Part shown: one piece after another, positions 27,621-40,861 of the stretch
Layout: every line of letters starts with the position of its first letter
Numbering within the stretch: the first letter of the stretch is position 1
Notes under the pieces: model-generated
Seen by the model: the letters and a program-made list of their open reading frames with translations, nothing else
Told to the model about the DNA's origin: nothing
The model's database searches: none
Program-made: the position numbers and the translations under genes
Assembly (NCBI GenBank): GCA_947085505.1
Contig: CAMTWI010000004.1
Location: forward strand, 193,800-257,799
Source: an uncultured bacterium
GTDB taxonomy: Bacteria > Patescibacteriota > Minisyncoccia > Phycocordibacterales > Phycocordibacteraceae
Direction: 5' to 3'
DNA: 64,000 bases

Positions 27621-27971
27621 TTATTGATTGTCGAGCTTTACAGATGCCTCAGGCGTTGTAACCGCCTTACTCATGGTGAGCATCTTAATGATGCCAAACG
27701 CAACGAGCCAGTAGACAGCCATTGCAAGGAGCGTCGTCCATTCAAAAACACTACCCGATACCTGACTTACGCCGAACACCGATGAAAATGGGAGCGTGAA
27801 CGGATACGAGAGTGAATAGATGAAGTCTGTGAATCCTGCAGCAGGATTCGCGCCAAGGAGCTTAAGCACAAAACGGAACGCAAGCAGAATCTCGAGTACA
27901 CCGAGTACGTACCATACAATTTGCGTACCTCGATACAGAGGCTTAGTTGAGGCAGCGACATTCGAATCCAT
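27621..27971 (-). CDS. YggT-family membrane protein
   Basis: ILLAFRFVLKLLGANPAAGFTDFIYSLSYPFTLPF matches the YGGT repeat pattern. Confidence 0.65.
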   Translation of the reverse strand: MDSNVAASTKPLYRGTQIVWYVLGVLEILLAFRFVLKLLGANPAAGFTDFIYSLSYPFTLPFSSVFGVSQVSGSVFEWTTLLAMAVYWLVAFGIIKMLTMSKAVTTPEASVKLDNQ

Positions 27972-28095
27972 AGGGATTTAGTTAGGGTTAGTAGCGACAG
28001 AGTGACACGTACCTGGTGAAGACCTCATGAAGCGCGGCATCATCTATGCCTATTGATCGGGAGTCATCCCGAAACAGAACTCAAGCAAACGTGCG

Positions 28096-28506
28096 CTATC
28101 CGTAGAGATGCTTCTTCGCGCTACAGCGACACGGAACACAGTGCTCGATACAATACTCTTTCCCATAGTCATACGTGAGCTCGTCTCCGGGCTTTATGTT
28201 CTTGAGCGCCATAACAAATACGCGACTCTTGTTGATTGCTGTTTCTGCGTTTGGACTGCAGGAATGATTGATATACCCCGCCTTATTAATGGCCGGCTTC
28301 CCGTCTATGGTCTTTGTCTTTGATATCTCAAAGAGATATTTGCTCTTACTACTTTCTGTCTCTTCTGGAGACAGTACGCGTCCTACATATTCAATAATGC
28401 AGCTCCCTTTCGGTATCGACTCTCCAGCAAAAAGCCCGAGACCGGCACTCGAACGTTTTACGGCGAGTTTCCACTCGCCGGGTACATACTTCCCTCGTTT
28501 TGCCAT
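28096..28506 (-). CDS. SET-domain protein (putative lysine methyltransferase)
   Basis: GLGLFAGESIPKGSCIIEYVG, INHSCSPNAE, GDELTYDYG and a C-terminal Cys cluster. Start set to MAKRGKYVPGEW. The longer ORF extension overlaps the divergent promoter region. Confidence 0.75.
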   Translation of the reverse strand: MAKRGKYVPGEWKLAVKRSSAGLGLFAGESIPKGSCIIEYVGRVLSPEETESSKSKYLFEISKTKTIDGKPAINKAGYINHSCSPNAETAINKSRVFVMALKNIKPGDELTYDYGKEYCIEHCVPCRCSAKKHLYG

Positions 28507-28557
28507 ATAGTCTACCCATACTACGGTGCATATGGCTCCTGATGCAAGAGATGATGG

Positions 28558-28574
28558 CTTCATGTAGGCTTCAC
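28558..28574 (+). promoter_or_regulatory. direct repeat CTTCAT-N5-CTTCAC upstream of the hybrid HK
   Basis: CTTCAT 28558-28563 and CTTCAC 28569-28574 (11-bp phase). TGtTATAAA follows at 28588-28596. ATG at 28607. Confidence 0.4.
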
Positions 28575-28606
28575 GCATAATACGTAGTGTTATAAAGACC
28601 CCCTTC

Positions 28607-30652
28607 ATGACTTTCTTCTCGTATTCCGGACGGAACCTTCTGCATATGGTTTTGCTCTTTTTGGCATACCTTCTGTCTGCTCAGATTTTCTCTTATTTCT
28701 ACGCCACTATCCCAAACGCACCGATACTGGTTTGGCCTTCGTCTGGAATCGCACTTGCCGGGCTTATTCTTGGTGGTATTGGGCTTTGGCCCGCAGTGTT
28801 TGCAGGTGCGCTTGTGCACAGCCTTTTATACGGGGACACGGCACTAGCGGTCGTTAGTGTTGCCGCCGCTAGTGCGCTGCAGGCAGTAGTTGGTGCCTAT
28901 TTTTTGAAGCAGTTCGGGTTTACAAACTCCTTCTCTCGCGTCCCGCAGACCATAGCGTTCATCCTGACGGCAATCCTTACTACCCTTATTGTCCCCTCAA
29001 TCGGCATACTGACACTCCTCATTGGGGGCGAACCGCTCACACGAGGTGTACTTGGTACCTACATACCGTGGTGGATTGCACAGATACTTTCTGTCCTTAT
29101 CGTAACGCCACTCTTGGTTCGGTGGCTTCCTCGCTTCACGTTTAGACGATCAAAGGGAGAGATGATTGAGGCGTGGCTATCCATAGCCTCCATAACGGGT
29201 GTTGCGTTCCTGTTGTACTGGACGCCGTACCGTGAGATTGCAGAAGTGCCACTTGTGTATCTCATTCTCGTACCACTCCTCTGGATTGCACTGCGTATTG
29301 GGCCCCGATTCATGACGCTTGCCTTGTTCATTAACGCGTTCCTTGCACTTGCGGGAACCGCATACCTAACGGTCTCTTCAGGATCTATCGCGATGCTCGG
29401 ACAAGCACTTCTTCAGACTGAAATCTTCATTATTATGATTTCGTTTATCTTCCTGCTCCTCGTTACCGTTGCCGAAGAGCGCAAGGACACGGCGAACGAT
29501 CTGCGGGAGAACGTAAAGCGTCTCGAAGACGCTATCGAGCGCATACGCAAGGAGGACGAGGCGAAGAGCCGTTTTATTGCAACACTCGCGCATGAGCTTA
29601 GGAATCCGCTCGCTCCTCTTATGTCCTCGCTTGAAATACTCAAGCTCGCACCTCCCAGCGTAAAGCAAACAAGCGGGCTCGCAGATGAGATGACTGATCA
29701 TCTCCAAACCATGCGTCACCTGCTTGACGACCTCCTCGACATATCACGCATCTCCCGCGAGAAGCTTTCGCTCTATAAAGAACGCGTAGATCTGAACGCC
29801 GTCATTCATCAAAGCACTCGGACCGTTGATCGGCTTATGAATGAGCGCGGTCATGCGCTCATTGTTGACGTTCCTGACACCGCAATCATGTTTGAAGCAG
29901 ATCCAGTGCGGCTCGAGCAGGTATTCGTGAACCTCTTAAACAACGCTGCGAAGTATACAGAGCCAGGCGGTACGATTACGGTATCAGCACAGATCTCCAA
30001 AGGATTCGTAACGGTTTGTGTATCGGATACCGGCATCGGTATGGATGAACATGTGCTTGAGCATGTCTTTGAAGCATTCTTTCAGATTGAACAGCCAGGC
30101 AAAATGCATGCGGGGCTTGGTATCGGTCTCTCGTTAACCCGGAACCTCGTTGAGATGCACGGCGGCACTATAGAAGCCAGGAGTCCTGGTATTGGTCGCG
30201 GCAGCGAGTTTGTGGTGCGGCTTCCCCTCACAGAATCCCTGCCTGAAGCAGCGACCAACAACACTAGAGCCGATATGCAGTCGAATGACGGACTCCGTAT
30301 TCTCATCGTGGATGACAACCGTGCTGCCGCAGATGCACTCGCGAAGCTTCTTGCACTTCGCGGGAACGTAACAGAAGCAGTGTATGCGAGCAAAGAAGCC
30401 ATCGAGCGAGCACCAACATTTTGTCCTGAGGTAGTGCTCCTCGACATCGGACTTCCCGATATGGACGGGTACGAGGTCGCACGAAGGCTTCGAAGCGACT
30501 CAAACTTCTCCGCCACCCTAATTGCGCTCACCGGATACGGTCAAGAGTCTGATATCCGCAAGGCCACAAAGGCCGGATTCGATCACCACCTCACAAAGCC
30601 AGCAGGGCTCGCTGACATTGAGGAGATACTACGCTCCATCGCGCGAACCTAA
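28607..30652 (+). CDS. hybrid sensor histidine kinase (polytopic MASE1-like sensor, HisKA, HATPase, C-terminal receiver)
   Basis: About 8 TM helices. H-box LAHELRNPLAP, N/G boxes (NNAAKYT, DTGIGM, GLGIGL) and a receiver with ILIVDDN...LLDIGLPDMDG...KP. Confidence 0.85.
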   Translation: MTFFSYSGRNLLHMVLLFLAYLLSAQIFSYFYATIPNAPILVWPSSGIALAGLILGGIGLWPAVFAGALVHSLLYGDTALAVVSVAAASALQAVVGAYFLKQFGFTNSFSRVPQTIAFILTAILTTLIVPSIGILTLLIGGEPLTRGVLGTYIPWWIAQILSVLIVTPLLVRWLPRFTFRRSKGEMIEAWLSIASITGVAFLLYWTPYREIAEVPLVYLILVPLLWIALRIGPRFMTLALFINAFLALAGTAYLTVSSGSIAMLGQALLQTEIFIIMISFIFLLLVTVAEERKDTANDLRENVKRLEDAIERIRKEDEAKSRFIATLAHELRNPLAPLMSSLEILKLAPPSVKQTSGLADEMTDHLQTMRHLLDDLLDISRISREKLSLYKERVDLNAVIHQSTRTVDRLMNERGHALIVDVPDTAIMFEADPVRLEQVFVNLLNNAAKYTEPGGTITVSAQISKGFVTVCVSDTGIGMDEHVLEHVFEAFFQIEQPGKMHAGLGIGLSLTRNLVEMHGGTIEARSPGIGRGSEFVVRLPLTESLPEAATNNTRADMQSNDGLRILIVDDNRAAADALAKLLALRGNVTEAVYASKEAIERAPTFCPEVVLLDIGLPDMDGYEVARRLRSDSNFSATLIALTGYGQESDIRKATKAGFDHHLTKPAGLADIEEILRSIART

Positions 30653-30665
30653 CGGGTATGGGACA

Positions 30666-31556
30666 ATGCGCGGGATGCCAAAGACCGCACTCATAGGGGT
30701 CCTTTCCCTTCTCGCCACACTCATTACTGGTACGGGCGCCTATGGCTACTATTACCTTGCCAGCGAGCTTGGAAGAGCCCAGGAGGCTCTAACAGCAACC
30801 AAGCAAGATGCCGAGGCACGTGCGGCTGCGCTCATGGAAGATCTCGCAATTAAGACTGAAGAAAAGATAACGCTTGCTGGGGAGCTTCGTCTTCTTCAAG
30901 AGGCACACGAGGATGAGAAGCGAACAGTACAGAGACTCTCGAATACAGTTGACGACCTTGAGAAGATCGTCGCAACTGATCCGGAACTCCTCGCAAAGTA
31001 TTCCAAAGTCTACTTTCTGAACGAGAACTATGCACCTGCGAAACTTTCGAGTATTGCAACCGAATTCACCTTTCAAAAGGAACGTACCTACGAAATACAC
31101 GCGGAGGTCGCCCCATTCTTAAAGAATCTGCTTGAGGACGCAAAGAAAGATGGGATGATTCTCCAGGTTGTGTCCGCGTACCGCTCCTTCGCAACGCAAG
31201 CGGCTCTCAAGTCTGGATACCGTATACGGTTTGGAACGGGAGCAAACGTGTTCTCTGCTGAGCAAGGTTACTCGGAGCATCAGCTCGGTACCGCGGTTGA
31301 TTTCACGACAGCAACCGTTGGCGGCATGTTTGTTGGATTTGATAAGACAGATGAGTATGCGTGGCTCACCAAGCATGCGCATGAATACGGCTTTATACTC
31401 TCCTATCCCAAAGGCAACACATATTACCAATACGAGCCCTGGCACTGGCGTTTCGTTGGAAGGAAGCTCGCGGAGCGCCTGCATGAGGATGGCGACTATT
31501 TCTATGACCTCGACCAACGAGTTATTGATACATACCTCGGCGTGCTCTTTGATTAA
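30666..31556 (+). CDS. D-alanyl-D-alanine carboxypeptidase, VanY/M15B family, with N-terminal TM segment and coiled coil
   Basis: SAYRSFATQ, SEHQLGTAVDF and EPWHWRFVG motifs. Start trimmed to MRGMPKTALIG. Confidence 0.8.
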   Translation: MRGMPKTALIGVLSLLATLITGTGAYGYYYLASELGRAQEALTATKQDAEARAAALMEDLAIKTEEKITLAGELRLLQEAHEDEKRTVQRLSNTVDDLEKIVATDPELLAKYSKVYFLNENYAPAKLSSIATEFTFQKERTYEIHAEVAPFLKNLLEDAKKDGMILQVVSAYRSFATQAALKSGYRIRFGTGANVFSAEQGYSEHQLGTAVDFTTATVGGMFVGFDKTDEYAWLTKHAHEYGFILSYPKGNTYYQYEPWHWRFVGRKLAERLHEDGDYFYDLDQRVIDTYLGVLFD

Positions 31557-33568: not shown

Positions 33569-33597
33569 ATAATAGCAGACTTGACAACTGCTGTCAA
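33569..33597 (-). promoter_or_regulatory. strong promoter for the 3D-domain gene, with its -35 inside a palindrome
   Basis: The minus strand reads TTGACA (rc 33592-33597), 17 nt, then TGcTATTAT (rc 33569-33577). Palindrome cttgaca-actgc-tgtcaag spans 33580-33598. The 38-nt leader carries the hairpin ccgtcc-gcaa-gggcgg followed by tttt. Confidence 0.55.
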
Positions 33598-33653: not shown

Positions 33654-33682
33654 TTGAAAATACGGCCTAGGTACAGTATTAT
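33654..33682 (+). promoter_or_regulatory. promoter ending 6 nt before ATG 33689
   Basis: TTGAAA 33654-33659, 17-nt spacer, TATTAT 33677-33682. Confidence 0.5.
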
Positions 33683-35120: not shown

Positions 35121-37988
35121 CTAACTTTCACAGGATTCACACACACCTGCCTCTTCTCCGGCGGCAACTCGTGCCATCTTGGCTTGCCACTCGCTCGCTG
35201 AGAATCCGCTCGGGATAGCAAGCTCAGGAGCCGCTTCAACGACTTCTTCAATAACAACACTTGTCGCAACAACGGAACCTCCTGCTGCACGGTTATGGGT
35301 TGAGCCGTACTCTGCAGTTGAAACCGTTGCCTTCTCAACCTGGGACGCGCCAAGCGTACGGAGGTAGTAGGTGGTCTTAAGACCCATCTCCCACGCCATG
35401 AAATAGATATCGGAGAGCTCCTTGCCTGAGGTGCCGTTGTAGAAGATATTCAAGGACTGCGACTGATCGATCCACTTGCCGCGACGGGCGGCTGCCTCAA
35501 CAAGCCACTTGCCGTCAATCTCAAACACTTCCTTGTACTTCTCCTTAAGGACGCGTGGAATCTCGTCGATGTTCTGAATACTGCCGTCCGCATACTTGAT
35601 GCGGTTCAACATGCCAGCACTCCAAAGTCCTGCCTTCTTCAAGTCCTCAACGAGATACTTGTTCACCACAACGAACTCTCCCTCTTTGTTGCTCTTCACG
35701 TAGATGTTCTTGTAGATCGGTTCAACACATGGGATGCAGCCAACGAGGTTTGCGGTTGAGGCGGTTGGTGCGATAGCCATCGTGTTCGAATTCCTCATAC
35801 CATGTGCCTTCACGTGCTCGCGAACCGGCGTCCAATCAAGTTTTCCGTCACGCTTCACCTTGATCTCTTCGCCGCGTTCTTTAGCAAGAAGGTCGATGGT
35901 GTCCTGCGGGAAGAGATTGCGATCCCACTTACTTCCCTTGTATGAGGAGTAGGTGCCACGCTCCTTCGCGAGCTCGGAAGAGCCAAGGATCGCGTAGTAC
36001 GCAACAACCTCCATACTCTCGTCTGCGAAGTTGAGTGCTTCGGGCGAATCGAACTGAATGCCAAGCATGTAGAGGGCATCATGGTAACCGCGAACACCAA
36101 GTCCAACCGGACGATGACGGGTGTTGCCGTTCTCTGCGTCAATCGTTGGGTAGAAGTTGAGATCGATAACATTGTCGAGCATGCGGATTGCGGTGCGAGT
36201 TACGCGCGCAACCATCTCATGATCGAAACGAAGATTGCCCTGTTCGTCAGGCGTCACGAACTTCGCGAAGTTGAGTGAACCAAGCGTACAGACGGCAGTC
36301 TCGTCGTCGCTCGTATTGAGTGTGATCTCGGTGCAGAGGTTTGAGTTGTGCACCACACCCGCATGATCCTGTGGAGACCTAACGTTGGACGGATCCTTCC
36401 AGGTGATCCATGGGTGTCCGGTCTCGAACAACATACCGATCATCTTCTTCCAGAGATCAGTAGCTGGAATGCGCTTGAAGAGTTCAATCTCGCCGCGATC
36501 CGCCTTCGCCTCGTACTCGATGTATGCGGTCTCAAACGCTGCTCCATAGAGGTCATGAAGGTCAGGCACGTCACTTGGCGAGAACAGGGTCCATTCCCCA
36601 TTGTCGCGCACACGCTTCATAAAGAGATCCGGAATCCAGTTCGCCGTATTGATGTCGTGCGTACGACGTCGCTCGTCTCCCGTGTTCTTACGAAGCTCGA
36701 GGAAGTCCTCGATGTCGAGGTGCCAGGTCTCAAGGTACACACAGCCCGCACCACGGCGCTTGCCGGAGCGGTTAATTGCGATGTTTACGTCGTTGGCTAC
36801 CTTTAGGAACGGAACGATACCCTGAGAACCTACACCAGTGCCCTTAATAAACGAGCCGGTTGCGCGAACCTTTGTCCAGTCAGTACCCGTGCCGCCAGAC
36901 CACTTAAGGTACTGAGCATTATCCGAGATGGACTTGAAGATACCGTCGAGGGAATCCGGAACAGAGTTGAGGAAGCAGTTCGACATCTGTGCCTTCTTAA
37001 AGCCAGACTGGAAGAGTGTGCGACCGCCTGGGGTGTAGTAGAAGTTCGAAAGCACCTCGTAGAACTCAAGTGCGGCTGCCTCTCTCGCCTCTGGCTTTTC
37101 CGCAATCGCAAGACCCATAGCAATACGCATCCAGAGCATCTGCGGGGTCTCGAGAGTCTTTCGAGCTTTCGGGTCCTCCATGCAGTATCGGCTGATCATG
37201 ATCTCGAGACCCATGTACTCGAACAAGGTGTCATTCTCAACCTTCATGGCACGTGCGAGTTTCTTTAGATCGAACTCGGCCATGCGCTCGTCGAGGTTTC
37301 CTTCAGCAACCAGGCGCTGCATGTTTTGAGCGAACACGCGCTCATGCGCATCGAGTGGATTCTTGGCATCGAACTCAGCACCAAACACTTCCGCGTAGAG
37401 GCGGTTCAAAAGGAGACGGGATGCGAGACGTGAGTAGGCAGGATCACGTTCGATCATAGAACGCACCACCATGATGAGTGCCTTTCCAACCTCAGCCGTC
37501 GTCATGCCCTCGTAGAGCTCGTACTTGAGTTGCGAGAGGATGTGATCGATGTCGAAGCTGCCGACATGCTCCTGGTCTGCGAGGTGCTGCAAGGTCTGGC
37601 GAAGCTTCACCTCGTTGAAGCGCTCCTGCTTTCCGGAGGCGGTCGTTATAAGAAGCCCCTCTTCTTCGATCTTCTCAAGAACCTCTTGTTTCTTCTCTTC
37701 GCGGATCTTCGTGTGCTCGTAGCGGTACACGATGTAATGCTTGGCAACAGAAAGATAGCCCGCTTCCATAAGAGCGAGCTCAACAAGGTCCTGCACGTTC
37801 TCTACCGAAGGAATCTGCTCCTCCCCGAACTTGTTCGAGAGGTCCTCGAGTACGCCATTGGTAACGTTCTCGAGTATCTCCTCAGTTACACCAACCTCAA
37901 CACTCGCAAAAGCTTTCCTCAGTGCATCGGTTATCTTTGCTTCCTCAAAGTCGACAATGCTTCCATTCCTCTTTTTGACCTGCTTCAT
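35121..37988 (-). CDS. nrdA: ribonucleotide reductase class I alpha subunit with N-terminal ATP-cone
   Basis: ATP-cone VKKRNGSIVDFEEAKI, catalytic NLCTEI and C-terminal CESCES. ATG 37988 preferred. The ORF track allows GTG 38015. Confidence 0.9.
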   Translation of the reverse strand: MKQVKKRNGSIVDFEEAKITDALRKAFASVEVGVTEEILENVTNGVLEDLSNKFGEEQIPSVENVQDLVELALMEAGYLSVAKHYIVYRYEHTKIREEKKQEVLEKIEEEGLLITTASGKQERFNEVKLRQTLQHLADQEHVGSFDIDHILSQLKYELYEGMTTAEVGKALIMVVRSMIERDPAYSRLASRLLLNRLYAEVFGAEFDAKNPLDAHERVFAQNMQRLVAEGNLDERMAEFDLKKLARAMKVENDTLFEYMGLEIMISRYCMEDPKARKTLETPQMLWMRIAMGLAIAEKPEAREAAALEFYEVLSNFYYTPGGRTLFQSGFKKAQMSNCFLNSVPDSLDGIFKSISDNAQYLKWSGGTGTDWTKVRATGSFIKGTGVGSQGIVPFLKVANDVNIAINRSGKRRGAGCVYLETWHLDIEDFLELRKNTGDERRRTHDINTANWIPDLFMKRVRDNGEWTLFSPSDVPDLHDLYGAAFETAYIEYEAKADRGEIELFKRIPATDLWKKMIGMLFETGHPWITWKDPSNVRSPQDHAGVVHNSNLCTEITLNTSDDETAVCTLGSLNFAKFVTPDEQGNLRFDHEMVARVTRTAIRMLDNVIDLNFYPTIDAENGNTRHRPVGLGVRGYHDALYMLGIQFDSPEALNFADESMEVVAYYAILGSSELAKERGTYSSYKGSKWDRNLFPQDTIDLLAKERGEEIKVKRDGKLDWTPVREHVKAHGMRNSNTMAIAPTASTANLVGCIPCVEPIYKNIYVKSNKEGEFVVVNKYLVEDLKKAGLWSAGMLNRIKYADGSIQNIDEIPRVLKEKYKEVFEIDGKWLVEAAARRGKWIDQSQSLNIFYNGTSGKELSDIYFMAWEMGLKTTYYLRTLGASQVEKATVSTAEYGSTHNRAAGGSVVATSVVIEEVVEAAPELAIPSGFSASEWQAKMARVAAGEEAGVCESCES

Positions 37989-38274
37989 AAGGTAATCCCG
38001 TAGGTTACGCGGCACGTTTATAAGTCAGCCTTGGCTTCCTCGCTGGCAGGGATTTCGCTCCACTTCGTGGCGCGTAGAGGGCGCCGTAGCGCTTGGCTCT
38101 CGCGTTTCCTCGACTGCATTCGGCTGTGTTGACCTCTGTATTGTACTCGTCTTCACCCAATTCTCAGTGTGCATAAACCAGCAGAAAACATAACTCGAAG
38201 CATTCAAGACACATCTTTTTAGAGCCTTATATAAAGCCGTGGAATAGCGGGTGTTTTAACGCTATAGTGCCGTG

Positions 38275-38390
38275 AGTCAGGGCTGCCAGTACGGACCGAT
38301 CAGTGTGCGGACCCGAAGTCCCTGATTAGGTGCATGTATTCATGACGCCGGGGGGGAGGCATGTTGCCTTCCCCTTTTTAATACCTAGGA
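38275..38390 (+). ncRNA. candidate small RNA or leader of unknown class
   Basis: Promoter TGGAAT 38240-38245, 17 nt, TATAGT 38263-38268. Hairpin agtcaggg...ccctgatt. Terminator ggggaggca-tgt-tgccttcccc followed by ttttt at about 38352-38388. Confidence 0.25.
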
Positions 38391-38406
38391 AGCACACTCC
38401 GCATTC

Positions 38407-38423
38407 GTTCATGAAGGCTTCAT
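38407..38423 (+). promoter_or_regulatory. direct repeat GTTCAT-N5-CTTCAT upstream of the response regulator (putative autoregulatory site)
   Basis: GTTCAT 38407-38412 and CTTCAT 38418-38423. TACAGT 38435-38440 lies 11 nt downstream. ATG at 38477. Confidence 0.4.
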
Positions 38424-38476
38424 GGTCTAATAGATACAGTTTCCCTACAGATATTTAGCCATTAGAACTTCTATTC

Positions 38477-39151
38477 ATGCGCATACTCATCGTTGAAGAC
38501 GAAGCGAAACTTGCTGAGGGACTTAAGCGCGGCCTCGAGAGCAAGGGATTCGCCGTTGACTGGATCGCCGAGAGCGAGAAGGCACGCACACGCATCCTCC
38601 TCTATCGCGACGAATACGACCTTATCCTGCTCGATCTCATGCTCCCGGGGATCGACGGCGCTACCATCACTCGTGAAGCGCGTAAGGAGGGCGTCACCAC
38701 ACCAATCATTATTCTCACGGCTCGCGACGAGACGGAGTATAAGGTTGAACTCCTTAACACGGGCGCAGACGACTATCTCGCGAAGCCTTTCTCCTTTGAA
38801 GAACTCGTTGCACGCATCAACGCGGTGCTCCGCCGTCCAGAGCAAACCATGCTGACAAAGATGACCGTGCGCGATATCGAGCTTGATACCGGTGCGCGCA
38901 CCGTTACCAAAGCTGGAAAACCTATCCAACTCACCCTTAAGGAGTATTCTTTACTTGAGTACTTCATGCGGCACCCAGACGAGGCCCTGACGCGAGAGAG
39001 TATCCTTGACCACGTCTGGAGCTTTGACTTCCCTGGCTTCTCAAACGTTCTTGATGTACATATGAAGAACCTTCGCAAGAAGCTTGATACTTATGCAGAC
39101 GCACCCCTCTTCGAAACCGTACGTGGCGTGGGTTACCGACTTAACCGATAA
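38477..39151 (+). CDS. OmpR/PhoB-family response regulator
   Basis: Receiver domain (ILIVEDE...LILLDLMLPGIDG...KPF) plus a winged-helix C-domain (VRGVGYRL). Confidence 0.9.
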   Translation: MRILIVEDEAKLAEGLKRGLESKGFAVDWIAESEKARTRILLYRDEYDLILLDLMLPGIDGATITREARKEGVTTPIIILTARDETEYKVELLNTGADDYLAKPFSFEELVARINAVLRRPEQTMLTKMTVRDIELDTGARTVTKAGKPIQLTLKEYSLLEYFMRHPDEALTRESILDHVWSFDFPGFSNVLDVHMKNLRKKLDTYADAPLFETVRGVGYRLNR

Positions 39152-40226
39152 GTATCGGTATAACCTGTTTTATAAGACCGCGACAAATGTTGTGGGTTTG
39201 CAGGTGATTCTCGCGCTCATTTCCCTCTTGATTCTTGCCTGGGGCATTGGATACGCACAAGAACGCACGCTATCTGCGGTTAGCGACAGAGTCGTAAATG
39301 GAGTATTCCTTGATTCCGACGCCTCCTCGCAAGGCCTTGCACAAACACTAGAGATCATAAGTAGTGAGACGCATCTCTATGCAGCGATTATCCTCATTGT
39401 TCTCAATGTTCTATTTGGACTCCTCATTGCCCGCTTTGCACTCTGGCCTACACGCAACAGTCTCCAGTTCCAAAAGAAGTTCATCGGAAACATAGCCCAC
39501 GAGATACGCACGCCCCTCGCCATCATAAAGACGAACACGGAAGTTGCGCTGTTCGATCCAAAACTCCCGGCGAGCATTAAGGATACGTTTGATGACACTA
39601 TCGTTGAGCTCGACCGGATCTCAGAGACCATCAACAACCTGCTTTCGTTCGATACCCTTACCCGTCCTCGCCGTATGGTGTTTGAGCCTACCAATCTCTG
39701 CGCACTCACCCACACCATTCTTGAGCGACATCAAGCACTCGCTGATTCTCGGGGCGTAGAACTCATTGCAAAGATGGACGAGGATTGTTTCGTTTGTGGC
39801 AACGGCGTAGCGCTCGAGCAAGTGGTAACAAACCTTGTTAAGAATGCCGTAAACTACACTCCAAAAGACAGGGATGGCTCAGTAACCGTTACAGTTGCTC
39901 CGGAGCCAGGCGACAAAATCATGCTTTCCGTAAAGGATACCGGCATAGGTATTGATCAGAAAGATCTCTTCCATATCTTCGAACCGTTCTATCGCGGTGA
40001 CACATCCCGCGCGCGCGGTATCGGCACCGGCACCTCAGGACTTGGCCTCGCTATTGTGAACGAGATCGTCAGATTGCATAAGGGCGCCATAACAATACGC
40101 AGCACACCTGGCAAAGGCACAGAAATCCGAGTCATCCTTCCGGCTGTAGGCGCTAAAGATCTACCCGATCCACTTACCAACGGAAAGAACAACACCACCA
40201 ACGAAGTGTCGGTTGATTTCTCCTAG
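39084..40226 (+). CDS. sensor histidine kinase (2 TM, HisKA, HATPase)
   Basis: H-box IAHEIRTPLA and N/G boxes (NAVNYTP, DTGIGI, GLGLAIV). The annotated ATG overlaps the RR gene by 68 nt. An in-frame GTG at 39123 is an alternative start. Confidence 0.85.
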   Translation: MILMQTHPSSKPYVAWVTDLTDKYRYNLFYKTATNVVGLQVILALISLLILAWGIGYAQERTLSAVSDRVVNGVFLDSDASSQGLAQTLEIISSETHLYAAIILIVLNVLFGLLIARFALWPTRNSLQFQKKFIGNIAHEIRTPLAIIKTNTEVALFDPKLPASIKDTFDDTIVELDRISETINNLLSFDTLTRPRRMVFEPTNLCALTHTILERHQALADSRGVELIAKMDEDCFVCGNGVALEQVVTNLVKNAVNYTPKDRDGSVTVTVAPEPGDKIMLSVKDTGIGIDQKDLFHIFEPFYRGDTSRARGIGTGTSGLGLAIVNEIVRLHKGAITIRSTPGKGTEIRVILPAVGAKDLPDPLTNGKNNTTNEVSVDFS

Positions 40227-40228
40227 TG

Positions 40229-40274
40229 CTTCATGAACCTGTTCACGACGGGTTCACGCTCTCTTTCATAAAAT
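40229..40274 (+). promoter_or_regulatory. three phased (G/C)TTCA(T/C) repeats plus a -10, directly after the HK stop
   Basis: CTTCAT 40229-40234, GTTCAC 40241-40246 and GTTCAC 40252-40257. TAAAAT 40269-40274 lies 11 nt downstream. Confidence 0.4.
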
Positions 40275-40280
40275 AGGTTT

Positions 40281-40497
40281 ATTGAGGAACCGCACGGAAA
40301 GCGCACGCGCTCCCCTGCTAAGGCCTCATCGTTCTTTCTCAGAGTATTTACGCCGGGCATCTCTACGGAAATGATGCACGGCATACGGGAAAGATTCCTT
40401 ACCAGACGCTAAGCCAGAAGCGCCTGTATGATACGGAAACTAAAGGATTGATGCCGGGGCCGCGCTCAGTAAAACTGGGAGCGGCCCCGGCTCTTTA
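40281..40497 (+). ncRNA. candidate ~210-nt non-coding transcript bounded by the repeat-promoter and a strong terminator
   Basis: By-eye plus-strand scan found only short ORFs (largest 13 codons). Terminator gccggggccgc...gcggccccggc 40453-40491 followed by tcttt. Confidence 0.35.
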
Positions 40498-40513
40498 TAA
40501 AAATCAGATACGG

Positions 40514-40861
40514 TTAAAGAAGTTCTCCAACCTTAGCAACAATTAGCTCGTCAGATTCAACGCAATAAACGTTTGGGAGCTTAAAAAAGAAAGCCTCTGA
40601 GTTTCCAGATACTACGACTGGCTTTTCCAGACCCATCGCCATCCCCGCTTCATATCGTGCACTTTCCTGGTCACCTTCCCATAGGTAAACTAGGAGGTCT
40701 GAGTCCCGCACTGCCTCTGCTTCCTTTATAGCTATTTCCTTTGTTGGACCTGCACTCAAAGTAGCAATCCAGTCGTAGGTTATCGTGTGGCCCTGCGCTG
40801 TAAGCGCGTCCATGACTGCACGAGCTCGTTCTATGGCCTTTCCTGCAACGTAAATTTTCAT
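40514..40861 (-). CDS. nucleoside 2-deoxyribosyltransferase-like protein
   Basis: 115 aa. MKIYVAGK..., a Rossmann-like pattern with acidic residues (LLVYLWEGDQESARYEAG). Family call is tentative. Confidence 0.4.
   Translation of the reverse strand: MKIYVAGKAIERARAVMDALTAQGHTITYDWIATLSAGPTKEIAIKEAEAVRDSDLLVYLWEGDQESARYEAGMAMGLEKPVVVSGNSEAFFFKLPNVYCVESDELIVAKVGELL

Follow-up and report, generated by a model that had tools for sequence, protein, structure and literature searches.

Tandem TTCAY repeats at four promoters of a Patescibacteria genome as predicted operators of an OmpR/PhoB-family response regulator

We analyzed a 64-kb stretch (the window; 89% coding) of contig CAMTWI010000004.1 from an uncultured bacterium of the lineage Patescibacteriota, which encodes an OmpR/PhoB-family response regulator (38477-39151) followed by its cognate histidine kinase. 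A previous sequence-only reading had proposed that a phased direct repeat, (G/C)TTCA(T/C)-N5-(G/C)TTCA(T/C), marks three promoters of the window as a candidate regulon of this two-component system. We found the repeat at four promoters, where it lies 10 or 11 nt upstream of a -10 box in the position of a missing -35 box, and all four positions are conserved in relatives. It is probable that the four TTCAY-N6-TTCAY elements are operators of the response regulator and constitute a PhoB/PhoP-style activator regulon.

Direct repeats at four promoters and their conservation

The hexamers, spacings and -10 boxes described by the sequence-only reading were all recovered exactly where it had placed them. 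The sites are as follows.

38407..38423, + strand: site A, GTTCATgaaggCTTCAT, with GTTCAT at 38407-38412 and CTTCAT at 38418-38423 (11-bp phasing), at ~-39 to -24 of the predicted start
40229..40257, + strand: site B, with CTTCAT at 40229-40234, GTTCAC at 40241-40246 and GTTCAC at 40252-40257
28558..28574, + strand: site C, CTTCATgtaggCTTCAC, with CTTCAT at 28558-28563 and CTTCAC at 28569-28574, upstream of ATG 28607
28032..28016, - strand: site D, CTTCATGAGGTCTTCAC (also listed as CTTCATgaggtCTTCAC), an exact match to the pattern

Sites A, B and C are the three promoters proposed previously, and they are real; site D on the minus strand had been overlooked. Site B begins 3 nt past the stop codon of the kinase gene (40224-40226), and its core pair is GTTCACgacggGTTCAC (40241-40257), with the extra half-site CTTCAT located 12 bp upstream of the core pair. 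Site D is located 45 nt upstream of a gene for a YggT-like protein (27971..27621). The four exact matches to the pattern compare with 0.10 expected in the window, and none of 100 shuffled sequences reached four. When the window was scanned with a promoter matrix made from 107 unique sites, which had been picked by their two half-sites alone, the four sites scored 36.4, 27.9, 26.3 and 20.9, and the next match scored 9.9; in 30 Markov-1 sequences used as a null, the best score averaged 12.4, with a maximum of 21.3. All four sites are non-coding, in a window with 89% coding DNA.

For comparison with relatives, contigs representing one genome per species were searched with the regulator as a query, resulting in 80 orthologous loci (L001-L080; 98-64% identity). 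Nearly all of these are labelled as Patescibacteria, Parcubacteria, Paceibacterota, Kaiserbacteria or Adlerbacteria, together with a number of Saccharibacteria and one Bacillota, which places the window in a bacterium of the candidate phyla radiation. Both strands of these loci (10 kb each) were then scanned with TTCA[CT]-N6-TTCA[CTG]. The site A motif, TTCATGAAnnnTTCA(T/G)G, was present ~60-70 nt before the regulator ATG (centred at ~-67) in 52 of the 80 loci, and the DNA around it was unalignable between genera. The core pair of site B was found at ~+1750, just past the kinase stop codon, in 41 of the 80 loci, with six spacer bases that vary freely. Altogether, 93 of 119 motif matches fell in these two narrow intervals, and the 26 others were spread over ~730 kb (80 species-level genomes); by a rough composition estimate, ~9 chance matches would be expected across the whole 80-locus set. 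The repeats thus bracket the regulator/kinase operon on both sides in dozens of genomes, in line with the earlier description of an OmpR-family pair flanked by repeats.

Sites C and D were compared by a protein search with the MASE1 hybrid kinase encoded downstream of site C, which yielded full-length orthologues of 91% to ~41% identity, and then in the nine contigs encoding them. TTCATG(T/G)AG(G/C)CTTCAY preceded the kinase gene in eight of the nine loci, down to 61% protein identity, and the assignment of site C to the MASE1 kinase/VanY operon made by the sequence-only reading holds to the same extent. Upstream of the YggT-like gene, TTCATGAGGTCTTCAC was present as an identical 16-mer in five of the nine loci (L161-L165) and with one mismatch in L167. 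At both sites the flanking DNA has diverged. Conservation of the sites in relatives had been suggested as a check, and it is seen at A, B, C and D. Note that a metagenome-contig scan with the MASE1 kinase was uninformative for sites C and D, as nearly all of its matches were to the generic kinase core and one was full-length (41%).

The spacing of the half-sites was examined in 796 kb of related loci for N0 to N15 in direct and inverted arrangements. N6 gave 92 matches and every other spacing 3-26, and inverted arrangements were not enriched, so that the 11-bp-phased direct repeat recognized in the window is borne out in the relatives. The runner-up, N7, is partly explained by the third half-site at site B.

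Each of the four sites precedes a putative -10 box.

38435..38440, + strand: -10 box TACAGT of the regulator/kinase operon, 11 nt past site A; predicted start at ~38447
40269..40274, + strand: -10 box TAAAAT of the small-RNA promoter, 11 nt past site B; predicted start at ~40281
28585..28590, + strand: -10 box TAGTGT, 10 nt past site C, with TAnnnT at equal spacing in eight relatives
27999..28004, - strand: weak -10 box CACTCT, 11 nt past site D; predicted start at ~27992; CATAGT in L165

Sites A and B have the same 11-nt geometry, as had been claimed. Site C indeed lies upstream of the MASE1 kinase gene, but its spacing to the -10 box, which had been regarded as different, is only 1 nt off that of A and B. 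The matrix, in which the -10 region was unselected, places the box exactly 11 nt downstream of the second half-site as TAtanT at matrix positions 27-32, with the A in 84 and the T in 88 of the 107 sites. None of the four promoters has a -35 box, with at most three of six matches to TTGACA at 16-18 nt spacing. Given this absence and the distance to the -10 box, the repeat spans ~-39 to -24 of promoters without a -35 box, confirming the earlier placement of the repeat at the -35 position; a site in place of the -35 box at a fixed distance to the -10 box is the geometry of a class II activator. We also considered the half-site as a disguised -35 box and rejected this, because this would leave 10 or 21 nt before the -10 box instead of 16-18. 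Elsewhere in the window, two divergent near-consensus sigma-70 promoters are present at 33569-33597 (- strand; TTGACA-17-TATTAT) and 33654-33682 (+ strand; TTGAAA-17-TATTAT), and these show that the genome makes use of canonical -35/-10 promoters.

A structured small RNA behind site B and a hairpin overlapping the site

The sequence-only reading had noted a terminator-bounded non-coding unit behind site B. This unit proved to be a conserved structured RNA with covarying helices, its own predicted promoter and a terminator, and its features are listed below.

40281..40499, + strand: conserved non-coding RNA of ~215 nt (alignment, RNAalifold and covariance model)
40283-40328, + strand: 5' hairpin closed by (U/C)GAGG...CCUC(A/G)
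40331-40338, + strand: box GUUCUUUC (alignment)
within 40281..40499, + strand: internal helix GCCG/CGGC-CAUC/GAUG (alignment)
40405-40412, + strand: box GACGCUAA (alignment)
40427-40434, + strand: box UAUGAUAC, invariant in the alignment
40453-40498, + strand: terminator (alignment)

In an alignment of the window with 13 relatives, RNAalifold gave 21 pairs, 11 of which are compensatory; shuffled alignments gave 4.8 on average, and none of 500 shuffles reached the observed value. Moreover, 95.2% of cells were paired as compared with 36-46% when the partners were slid. The RNA of the window folds with a minimum free energy of -87.6 kcal/mol (z = -4.26). A covariance model found one copy in the window (40282-40503, 221.7 bits), and it also matched seven genomes outside the training set at the same position behind the kinase gene. 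The 5' hairpin and the UUCYUUC box occur in 24 genomes with a regulator identity of ~81% or more; in more distant genomes the promoter is kept and the RNA boxes are lost. In most relatives, site B and the next gene of substantial size are ~200-250 nt apart; that gene is usually convergent and is not the same from genome to genome.

Rfam 15 detected only two tRNAs in the whole window and just sub-threshold spurious matches in 40200-40560. A small protein encoded by the unit was rejected, as its open reading frames (5-14 aa) are not conserved in length or frame and the indels are not multiples of three. Because of the conserved covarying structure, the lack of an Rfam match and the lack of a conserved open reading frame, we conclude that the unit, as judged from these comparisons, is a conserved small RNA and a candidate new RNA family. 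A naive duplex search against 65 translation-initiation regions gave no meaningful ranking and no target, with the regulon genes at ranks 39, 53 and 63.

A terminator scan flagged TGAACCTGTT-CAC-GACGGGTTCA followed by CGCTCTCTTT, a hairpin at 40234-40256 that overlaps site B. In the window and L001-L007, the hairpin shows compensatory spacer changes, e.g., AACCCG/CGGGTT versus AATTCG/CGGATT (ACC/GGT versus ATT/GAT), with a dG of -6 to -15 kcal/mol and a modest T-rich tail (2-6 T in 8 nt). From L008 outward it is mostly lost or weaker (dG 0 to ~-7 kcal/mol, mostly above -5), yet both direct half-sites are still followed by the -10 box at 11 nt. We therefore rejected a terminator as the sole explanation of site B. 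In the closest subclade, site B, as the probable promoter of the RNA, may also be a terminator, or 3' stabilizer, of the kinase mRNA. Most relatives have no strong terminator between the kinase operon and the RNA; without the hairpin, read-through from the operon would stop at the terminator of the RNA, as in 3'-end small RNAs with an internal promoter.

The response regulator and the proposed mode of action

The two-component system flanked by sites A and B consists of the following genes.

38477..39151, + strand: OmpR/PhoB-family response regulator of 224 aa (Response_reg, 3.7e-28; Trans_reg_C, 2.3e-26)
39093..40226, + strand: cognate histidine kinase with two predicted membrane helices followed by HisKA and HATPase_c

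The regulator has an N-terminal receiver and a C-terminal winged-helix domain, as is characteristic of the OmpR/PhoB family, with full-length matches to DrrD, PhoP, MtrA, RegX3 and BasR, and no other winged-helix response regulator is encoded in the window. Its closest solved structures are Thermotoga maritima DrrD (2e-54) and then Mycobacterium tuberculosis PhoP (8e-48). All 80 orthologues have the same recognition helix, SNVLDVHMKNLRKK, just as the TTCA core is invariant. The residues aligned to PhoP Asn212, Val213 and the wing Arg237 are identical and an Asp aligns with Glu215; the differing residues (Ser216 to Val, Tyr217 to His and Tyr220 to Asn) are peripheral. The residue before the recognition helix (~39035-39037) is Phe in L001-L049 and Trp in L050-L080, and the downstream half-site ends in T in 56, C in 7 and G in 3 cases with Phe and G in 20, T in 5 and C in 3 with Trp, a correlation confounded by phylogeny. 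The regulator scored below all cut-offs of the NCBIfam equivalogs (best, RppA, 214.6 versus 250), so that it is not recognizable as PhoB, WalR, CopR or similar. For the kinase, Pfam gives HisKA and HATPase_c alone, with no HAMP or PAS domain detected; its start is uncertain (TTG 39084, ATG 39093 or GTG 39123).

The repeat itself belongs to a familiar class. Half-sites are reported as TCACAGC-N4-TCACAGC for M. tuberculosis PhoP, which binds as a tandem dimer (PDB 5ED4), GTTCACC-N4-GTTCACC for Streptomyces coelicolor PhoP and CTGTCAT-N4-CTGTCAT for Escherichia coli PhoB (PMC4832192). These half-sites place TTCAY at 11-bp phasing in the PhoP/PhoB recognition class, and the tandem direct repeat, its 10-11 bp periodicity and a footprint conserved at orthologous promoters are all features that the sites share with OmpR/PhoB operators. 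The system resembles PhoB and its pho box in the family of the regulator, the direct half-sites with 11-bp phasing (TTCAY versus GTCAY, one base off), the abutment of the site on the -10 box at 10-11 nt without a -35 box, and the predicted autoregulation of the regulator/kinase operon. On the other hand, the regulator scores 197.7 against the PhoB cut-off of 296.2 and the kinase 154.5 against 334.2 for PhoR, the kinase lacks a PAS domain, phosphate-uptake genes are absent from the four targets and the phylum is Patescibacteria; membership in the Pho regulon was rejected on the unmet equivalog cut-offs and the absence of phosphate-acquisition genes among the targets. Actinobacterial PhoP is the closest homologue found with a solved DNA complex and shares TCAC/GTTCAC in the same 11-bp register, and its head-to-tail tandem dimer is the likely binding mode here, whereas half-site positions 5-7 are loosely constrained here and the regulon content is unrelated.

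WalR/WalK (YycFG) of Firmicutes is likewise comparable, as it combines an OmpR-family regulator and hexamer direct repeats with an N5 spacer with peptidoglycan-remodelling targets, to which the VanY-type carboxypeptidase here, and an M23 peptidase at site D in relatives, would correspond. However, WalR recognizes TGTWAH rather than TTCAY, and the present kinase has neither HAMP nor PAS, making this a functional analogy only. Membership in WalRK was rejected (YycF, 164 versus 340; WalK, 149.6 versus 725; no HAMP/PAS).

We propose the following mechanism. A signal, probably related to the membrane or envelope, would act on the small membrane kinase and lead to phosphorylation of the regulator, which would then dock on a direct repeat as a head-to-tail dimer whose two recognition helices each read a TTCAY, in major grooves that follow each other at a distance of one helical turn. 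Located over ~-39 to -24, the regulator would recruit RNA polymerase to the -10-only promoters in the class II manner of PhoB. The regulon would comprise the regulator/kinase operon itself (site A), resulting in positive autoregulation, the ~215-nt small RNA transcribed from right behind the kinase stop codon (site B), the operon of the MASE1 hybrid kinase and VanY carboxypeptidase (site C), and the YggT-like membrane protein (site D). A theme of cell-wall or envelope remodelling fits the predicted functions of VanY and the YggT-like protein, and of M23 and a small secreted protein in relatives.

Several points weigh against this proposal. Its binding and expression sides are both deduced from sequence, and the link between sites and regulator consists of adjacency and co-conservation, with 64 kb of this genome covered, which allows for another OmpR-type regulator elsewhere; binding over -39 to -24 could also repress instead of activate. 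The -10 box at site D (CACTCT) is poor. About one third of the orthologous loci have no strict match at site A, most of them showing a degenerate second half-site, and L169, whose kinase is the most distant of the orthologues compared, has no site C. The link to the regulator is favoured by a T/C-to-G shift in the final position of the second half-site, seen at A and B in the same genomes (Fisher p = 1.8e-4), but this statistic takes no account of phylogeny. In the window, the relaxed core TTCAY-Nx-TTCAY has four matches each at N6, N4 and N7. Since N4 and N7 are as frequent there as N6, and the single hexamer STTCAY is mildly over-represented (181 versus 135), the window taken alone is no more than suggestive, and the case is decided by the comparison with relatives. 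The general excess of the hexamer may come from TTC (Phe) followed by a codon starting with A. A cluster of four irregularly spaced TTCAY words lies inside the YggT-like gene (27790-27833, - strand); it was rejected as an operator, because the words coincide with the codons ttc aca, ttc atc and ttc acg (Phe-Thr, Phe-Ile) and tat tca (Tyr-Ser).

The elements could be genuine operators and yet be bound by a factor encoded outside the window, either of the OmpR family or an unrelated binder of tandem repeats, in which case the regulator/kinase operon would be a target and not the source of the regulation. Although only 64 kb were seen and the assignment is made via adjacency, and although the MASE1 hybrid kinase implies at least one further phosphorelay partner elsewhere in the genome, the sites bracket the operon on both sides in dozens of genomes, which is a classic signature of autoregulation, and the window holds no second winged-helix regulator. 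In addition, the T to G drift of the half-site tracks the substitution beside the recognition helix, the helix is as invariant as the TTCA core, and the motif class (TCAY in an 11-bp direct repeat) is that of the closest characterized homologues; we thus consider another binder unlikely. Repression by the regulator itself, occluding RNA polymerase at -39 to -24 so that the signal would switch the regulon off, appears a little less likely still. OmpR-family proteins can repress from such positions, the site overlaps a region that the polymerase must contact and the sign of regulation is not readable from the letters of the DNA, but the four promoters and the 107-site set combine the lack of a -35 box with a fixed 10-11 nt to the -10 box, and promoters of this kind should stay silent unless an activator is present. 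Contact between activator and polymerase typically goes with a strict helical register of site and -10 box, as in the pho box of PhoB.

It is highly improbable that there is no regulon at all, with site B being a mere terminator of the kinase operon and the likeness of the sites being due to chance or to palindromes such as TTCATGAA. The scan does flag a hairpin and tail at site B, with compensatory changes in the window and L001-L007, and a perfect palindrome, CATGAAGgCTTCATG, lies within site A. However, in distant relatives the direct repeat, with its -10 box at 11 nt, outlives the hairpin. T-tracts are weak or missing, and there is no excess of inverted arrangements. No same-strand genes in need of termination precede sites A, C and D, which are conserved independently. 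The hairpin is best seen as a function added in one subclade, on top of the operator predicted for the response regulator.

Target genes, wider significance and neighbouring features

The genes downstream of sites C and D are as follows.

28607..30652, + strand: MASE1 hybrid histidine kinase (MASE1, HisKA, HATPase_c and receiver)
30666..31556, + strand: VanY-type D-Ala-D-Ala (or LdcB-like) carboxypeptidase (domain match)
27621..27971, - strand: YggT-like small membrane protein of 116 aa (Pfam YGGT, E = 4e-5, below the gathering score)

The predicted transcription start at ~28597 would leave a leader of only ~10 nt before ATG 28607; an alternative start of the MASE1 kinase lies at 28646, where an identical database entry begins 13 codons later (668 aa), and most orthologues have 681 aa. 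VanY is probably part of the MASE1 kinase operon, as it starts 14 nt past the kinase stop codon. Weak YggT matches are also precomputed for the YggT-like genes of relatives. The gene order in relatives is YggT(-), M23 peptidase(+), SET(-), MASE1 kinase(+), VanY(+) and GH18(-), which is conserved in the window except for the missing M23 gene. In L161-L165 and L167, a gene for an M23-family peptidase of 165-170 aa points away from the YggT-like gene, so that site D falls into the intergenic region between two divergent genes; in the window (~27972-28095, equivalent to this region of the relatives), it lies between the YggT-like gene and the stop codon of the SET gene. The SET-domain gene (lysine methyltransferase-like; 28096-28608, - strand), unusual in bacteria, is present as one copy in the window and as two tandem copies in several relatives (L161, L162, L164 and L165). 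Its start is likely 28506 and not 28608, which makes site C intergenic.

Further copies of TTCAY-N6-TTCAB with TAnnnT ~11 nt downstream were observed in some relatives, namely L060, L065, L071 and L074 (~-3.5 to -4.9 kb, - strand), L052, L055, L059, L066 and L069 (~+690, right after the regulator stop codon), and L027 and L031 (- strand). They precede a conserved secreted protein of ~80 aa (MTLALTKRIAGG...) or opposite-orientation RNA-like GAGG starts, and some directly follow the regulator gene. These extra sites indicate that the regulon differs between genera.

As a tentative proposal with a somewhat less than even chance of being right, this clade of ultra-small Patescibacteria (Parcubacteria/Paceibacterota) may hard-wire a two-component operon, at its 3' end, to a structured small RNA not described before. 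In the subclade of this genome, one compact element would act both as terminator and as regulator-dependent promoter, and the RNA may be a principal output of an envelope/cell-wall circuit that also feeds the MASE1 kinase. Besides OmpR-dependent examples, MgrR activated by PhoQP and CpxQ activated by CpxAR are small RNAs under two-component control. In enterobacteria such RNAs are well known, e.g., OmrA/OmrB with EnvZ-OmpR, and are conceived as parts of a mixed transcriptional/post-transcriptional circuit (PMC5175337). Similar to OmrA/B-type RNAs, the RNA found here has a promoter that carries the (putative) operator of the regulator, and it resembles 3'-end small RNAs sharing the terminator of the upstream operon in being located at the 3' end of the regulator/kinase operon. 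Unlike OmrA/B and MgrR, its gene is fused to the two-component operon across the whole clade, and it has no Rfam family.

How genes are regulated in the candidate phyla radiation has hardly been explored, and its organisms are mostly uncultured; full-text literature searches, most of them aimed at this phylum, found no two-component regulon or small RNA described for it in the papers covered. If true, the present case would be without precedent in the radiation, both as a defined regulon and as a small RNA under the control of a regulator. The analysis yields a candidate RNA family in at least 24 species-level genomes and a predicted four-promoter regulon that would connect a minimal membrane kinase with membrane and peptidoglycan-trimming proteins as well as with another sensor kinase. 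Given the textbook design of the PhoB/PhoP type, the advance lies in scope (phylum, RNA and regulon content) and not in principle, and the most original aspects are the candidate new RNA family and the candidate terminator/promoter overlap, which is unusual. The operator motif, TTCAY-N6-TTCAY followed by 10-11 nt and TAnnnT, is testable; the regulator and its sites are open to in vitro work without culture, and the motif can be applied to hundreds of metagenome-assembled genomes.

Several other features were observed around these genes. No Shine-Dalgarno sequences were seen upstream of the genes here (38455-38476 and 27972-27995; also L001-L013 and L161-L167). In many relatives, an element, TTAGCC/TTATCC/TAACCC...TAA, recurs ~15-25 nt before the start codons of the genes for the regulator and the YggT-like protein; it may be a leader or translation-initiation signal. 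Just before site A, a strong intrinsic terminator is present on the + strand at ~38352-38379, GGGGAGGC-ATGTT-GCCTTCCCC-TTTTT; the gene before it is on the minus strand, and no + strand open reading frame of 50 aa or more ends there. The segment 38240-38378 is conserved only in L003, and most relatives too carry a + strand terminator right before site A. No credible Rfam match was found in the region upstream of site A. Further upstream, ~220 nt of non-coding DNA (38016-38240, - strand) precede the gene for the large subunit of class I ribonucleotide reductase (35121..38015). This segment is 68-95% conserved in about a dozen relatives, has no Rfam match and shows no significant folding (z = -0.96), and it probably serves the reductase operon as a conserved leader or operator region.

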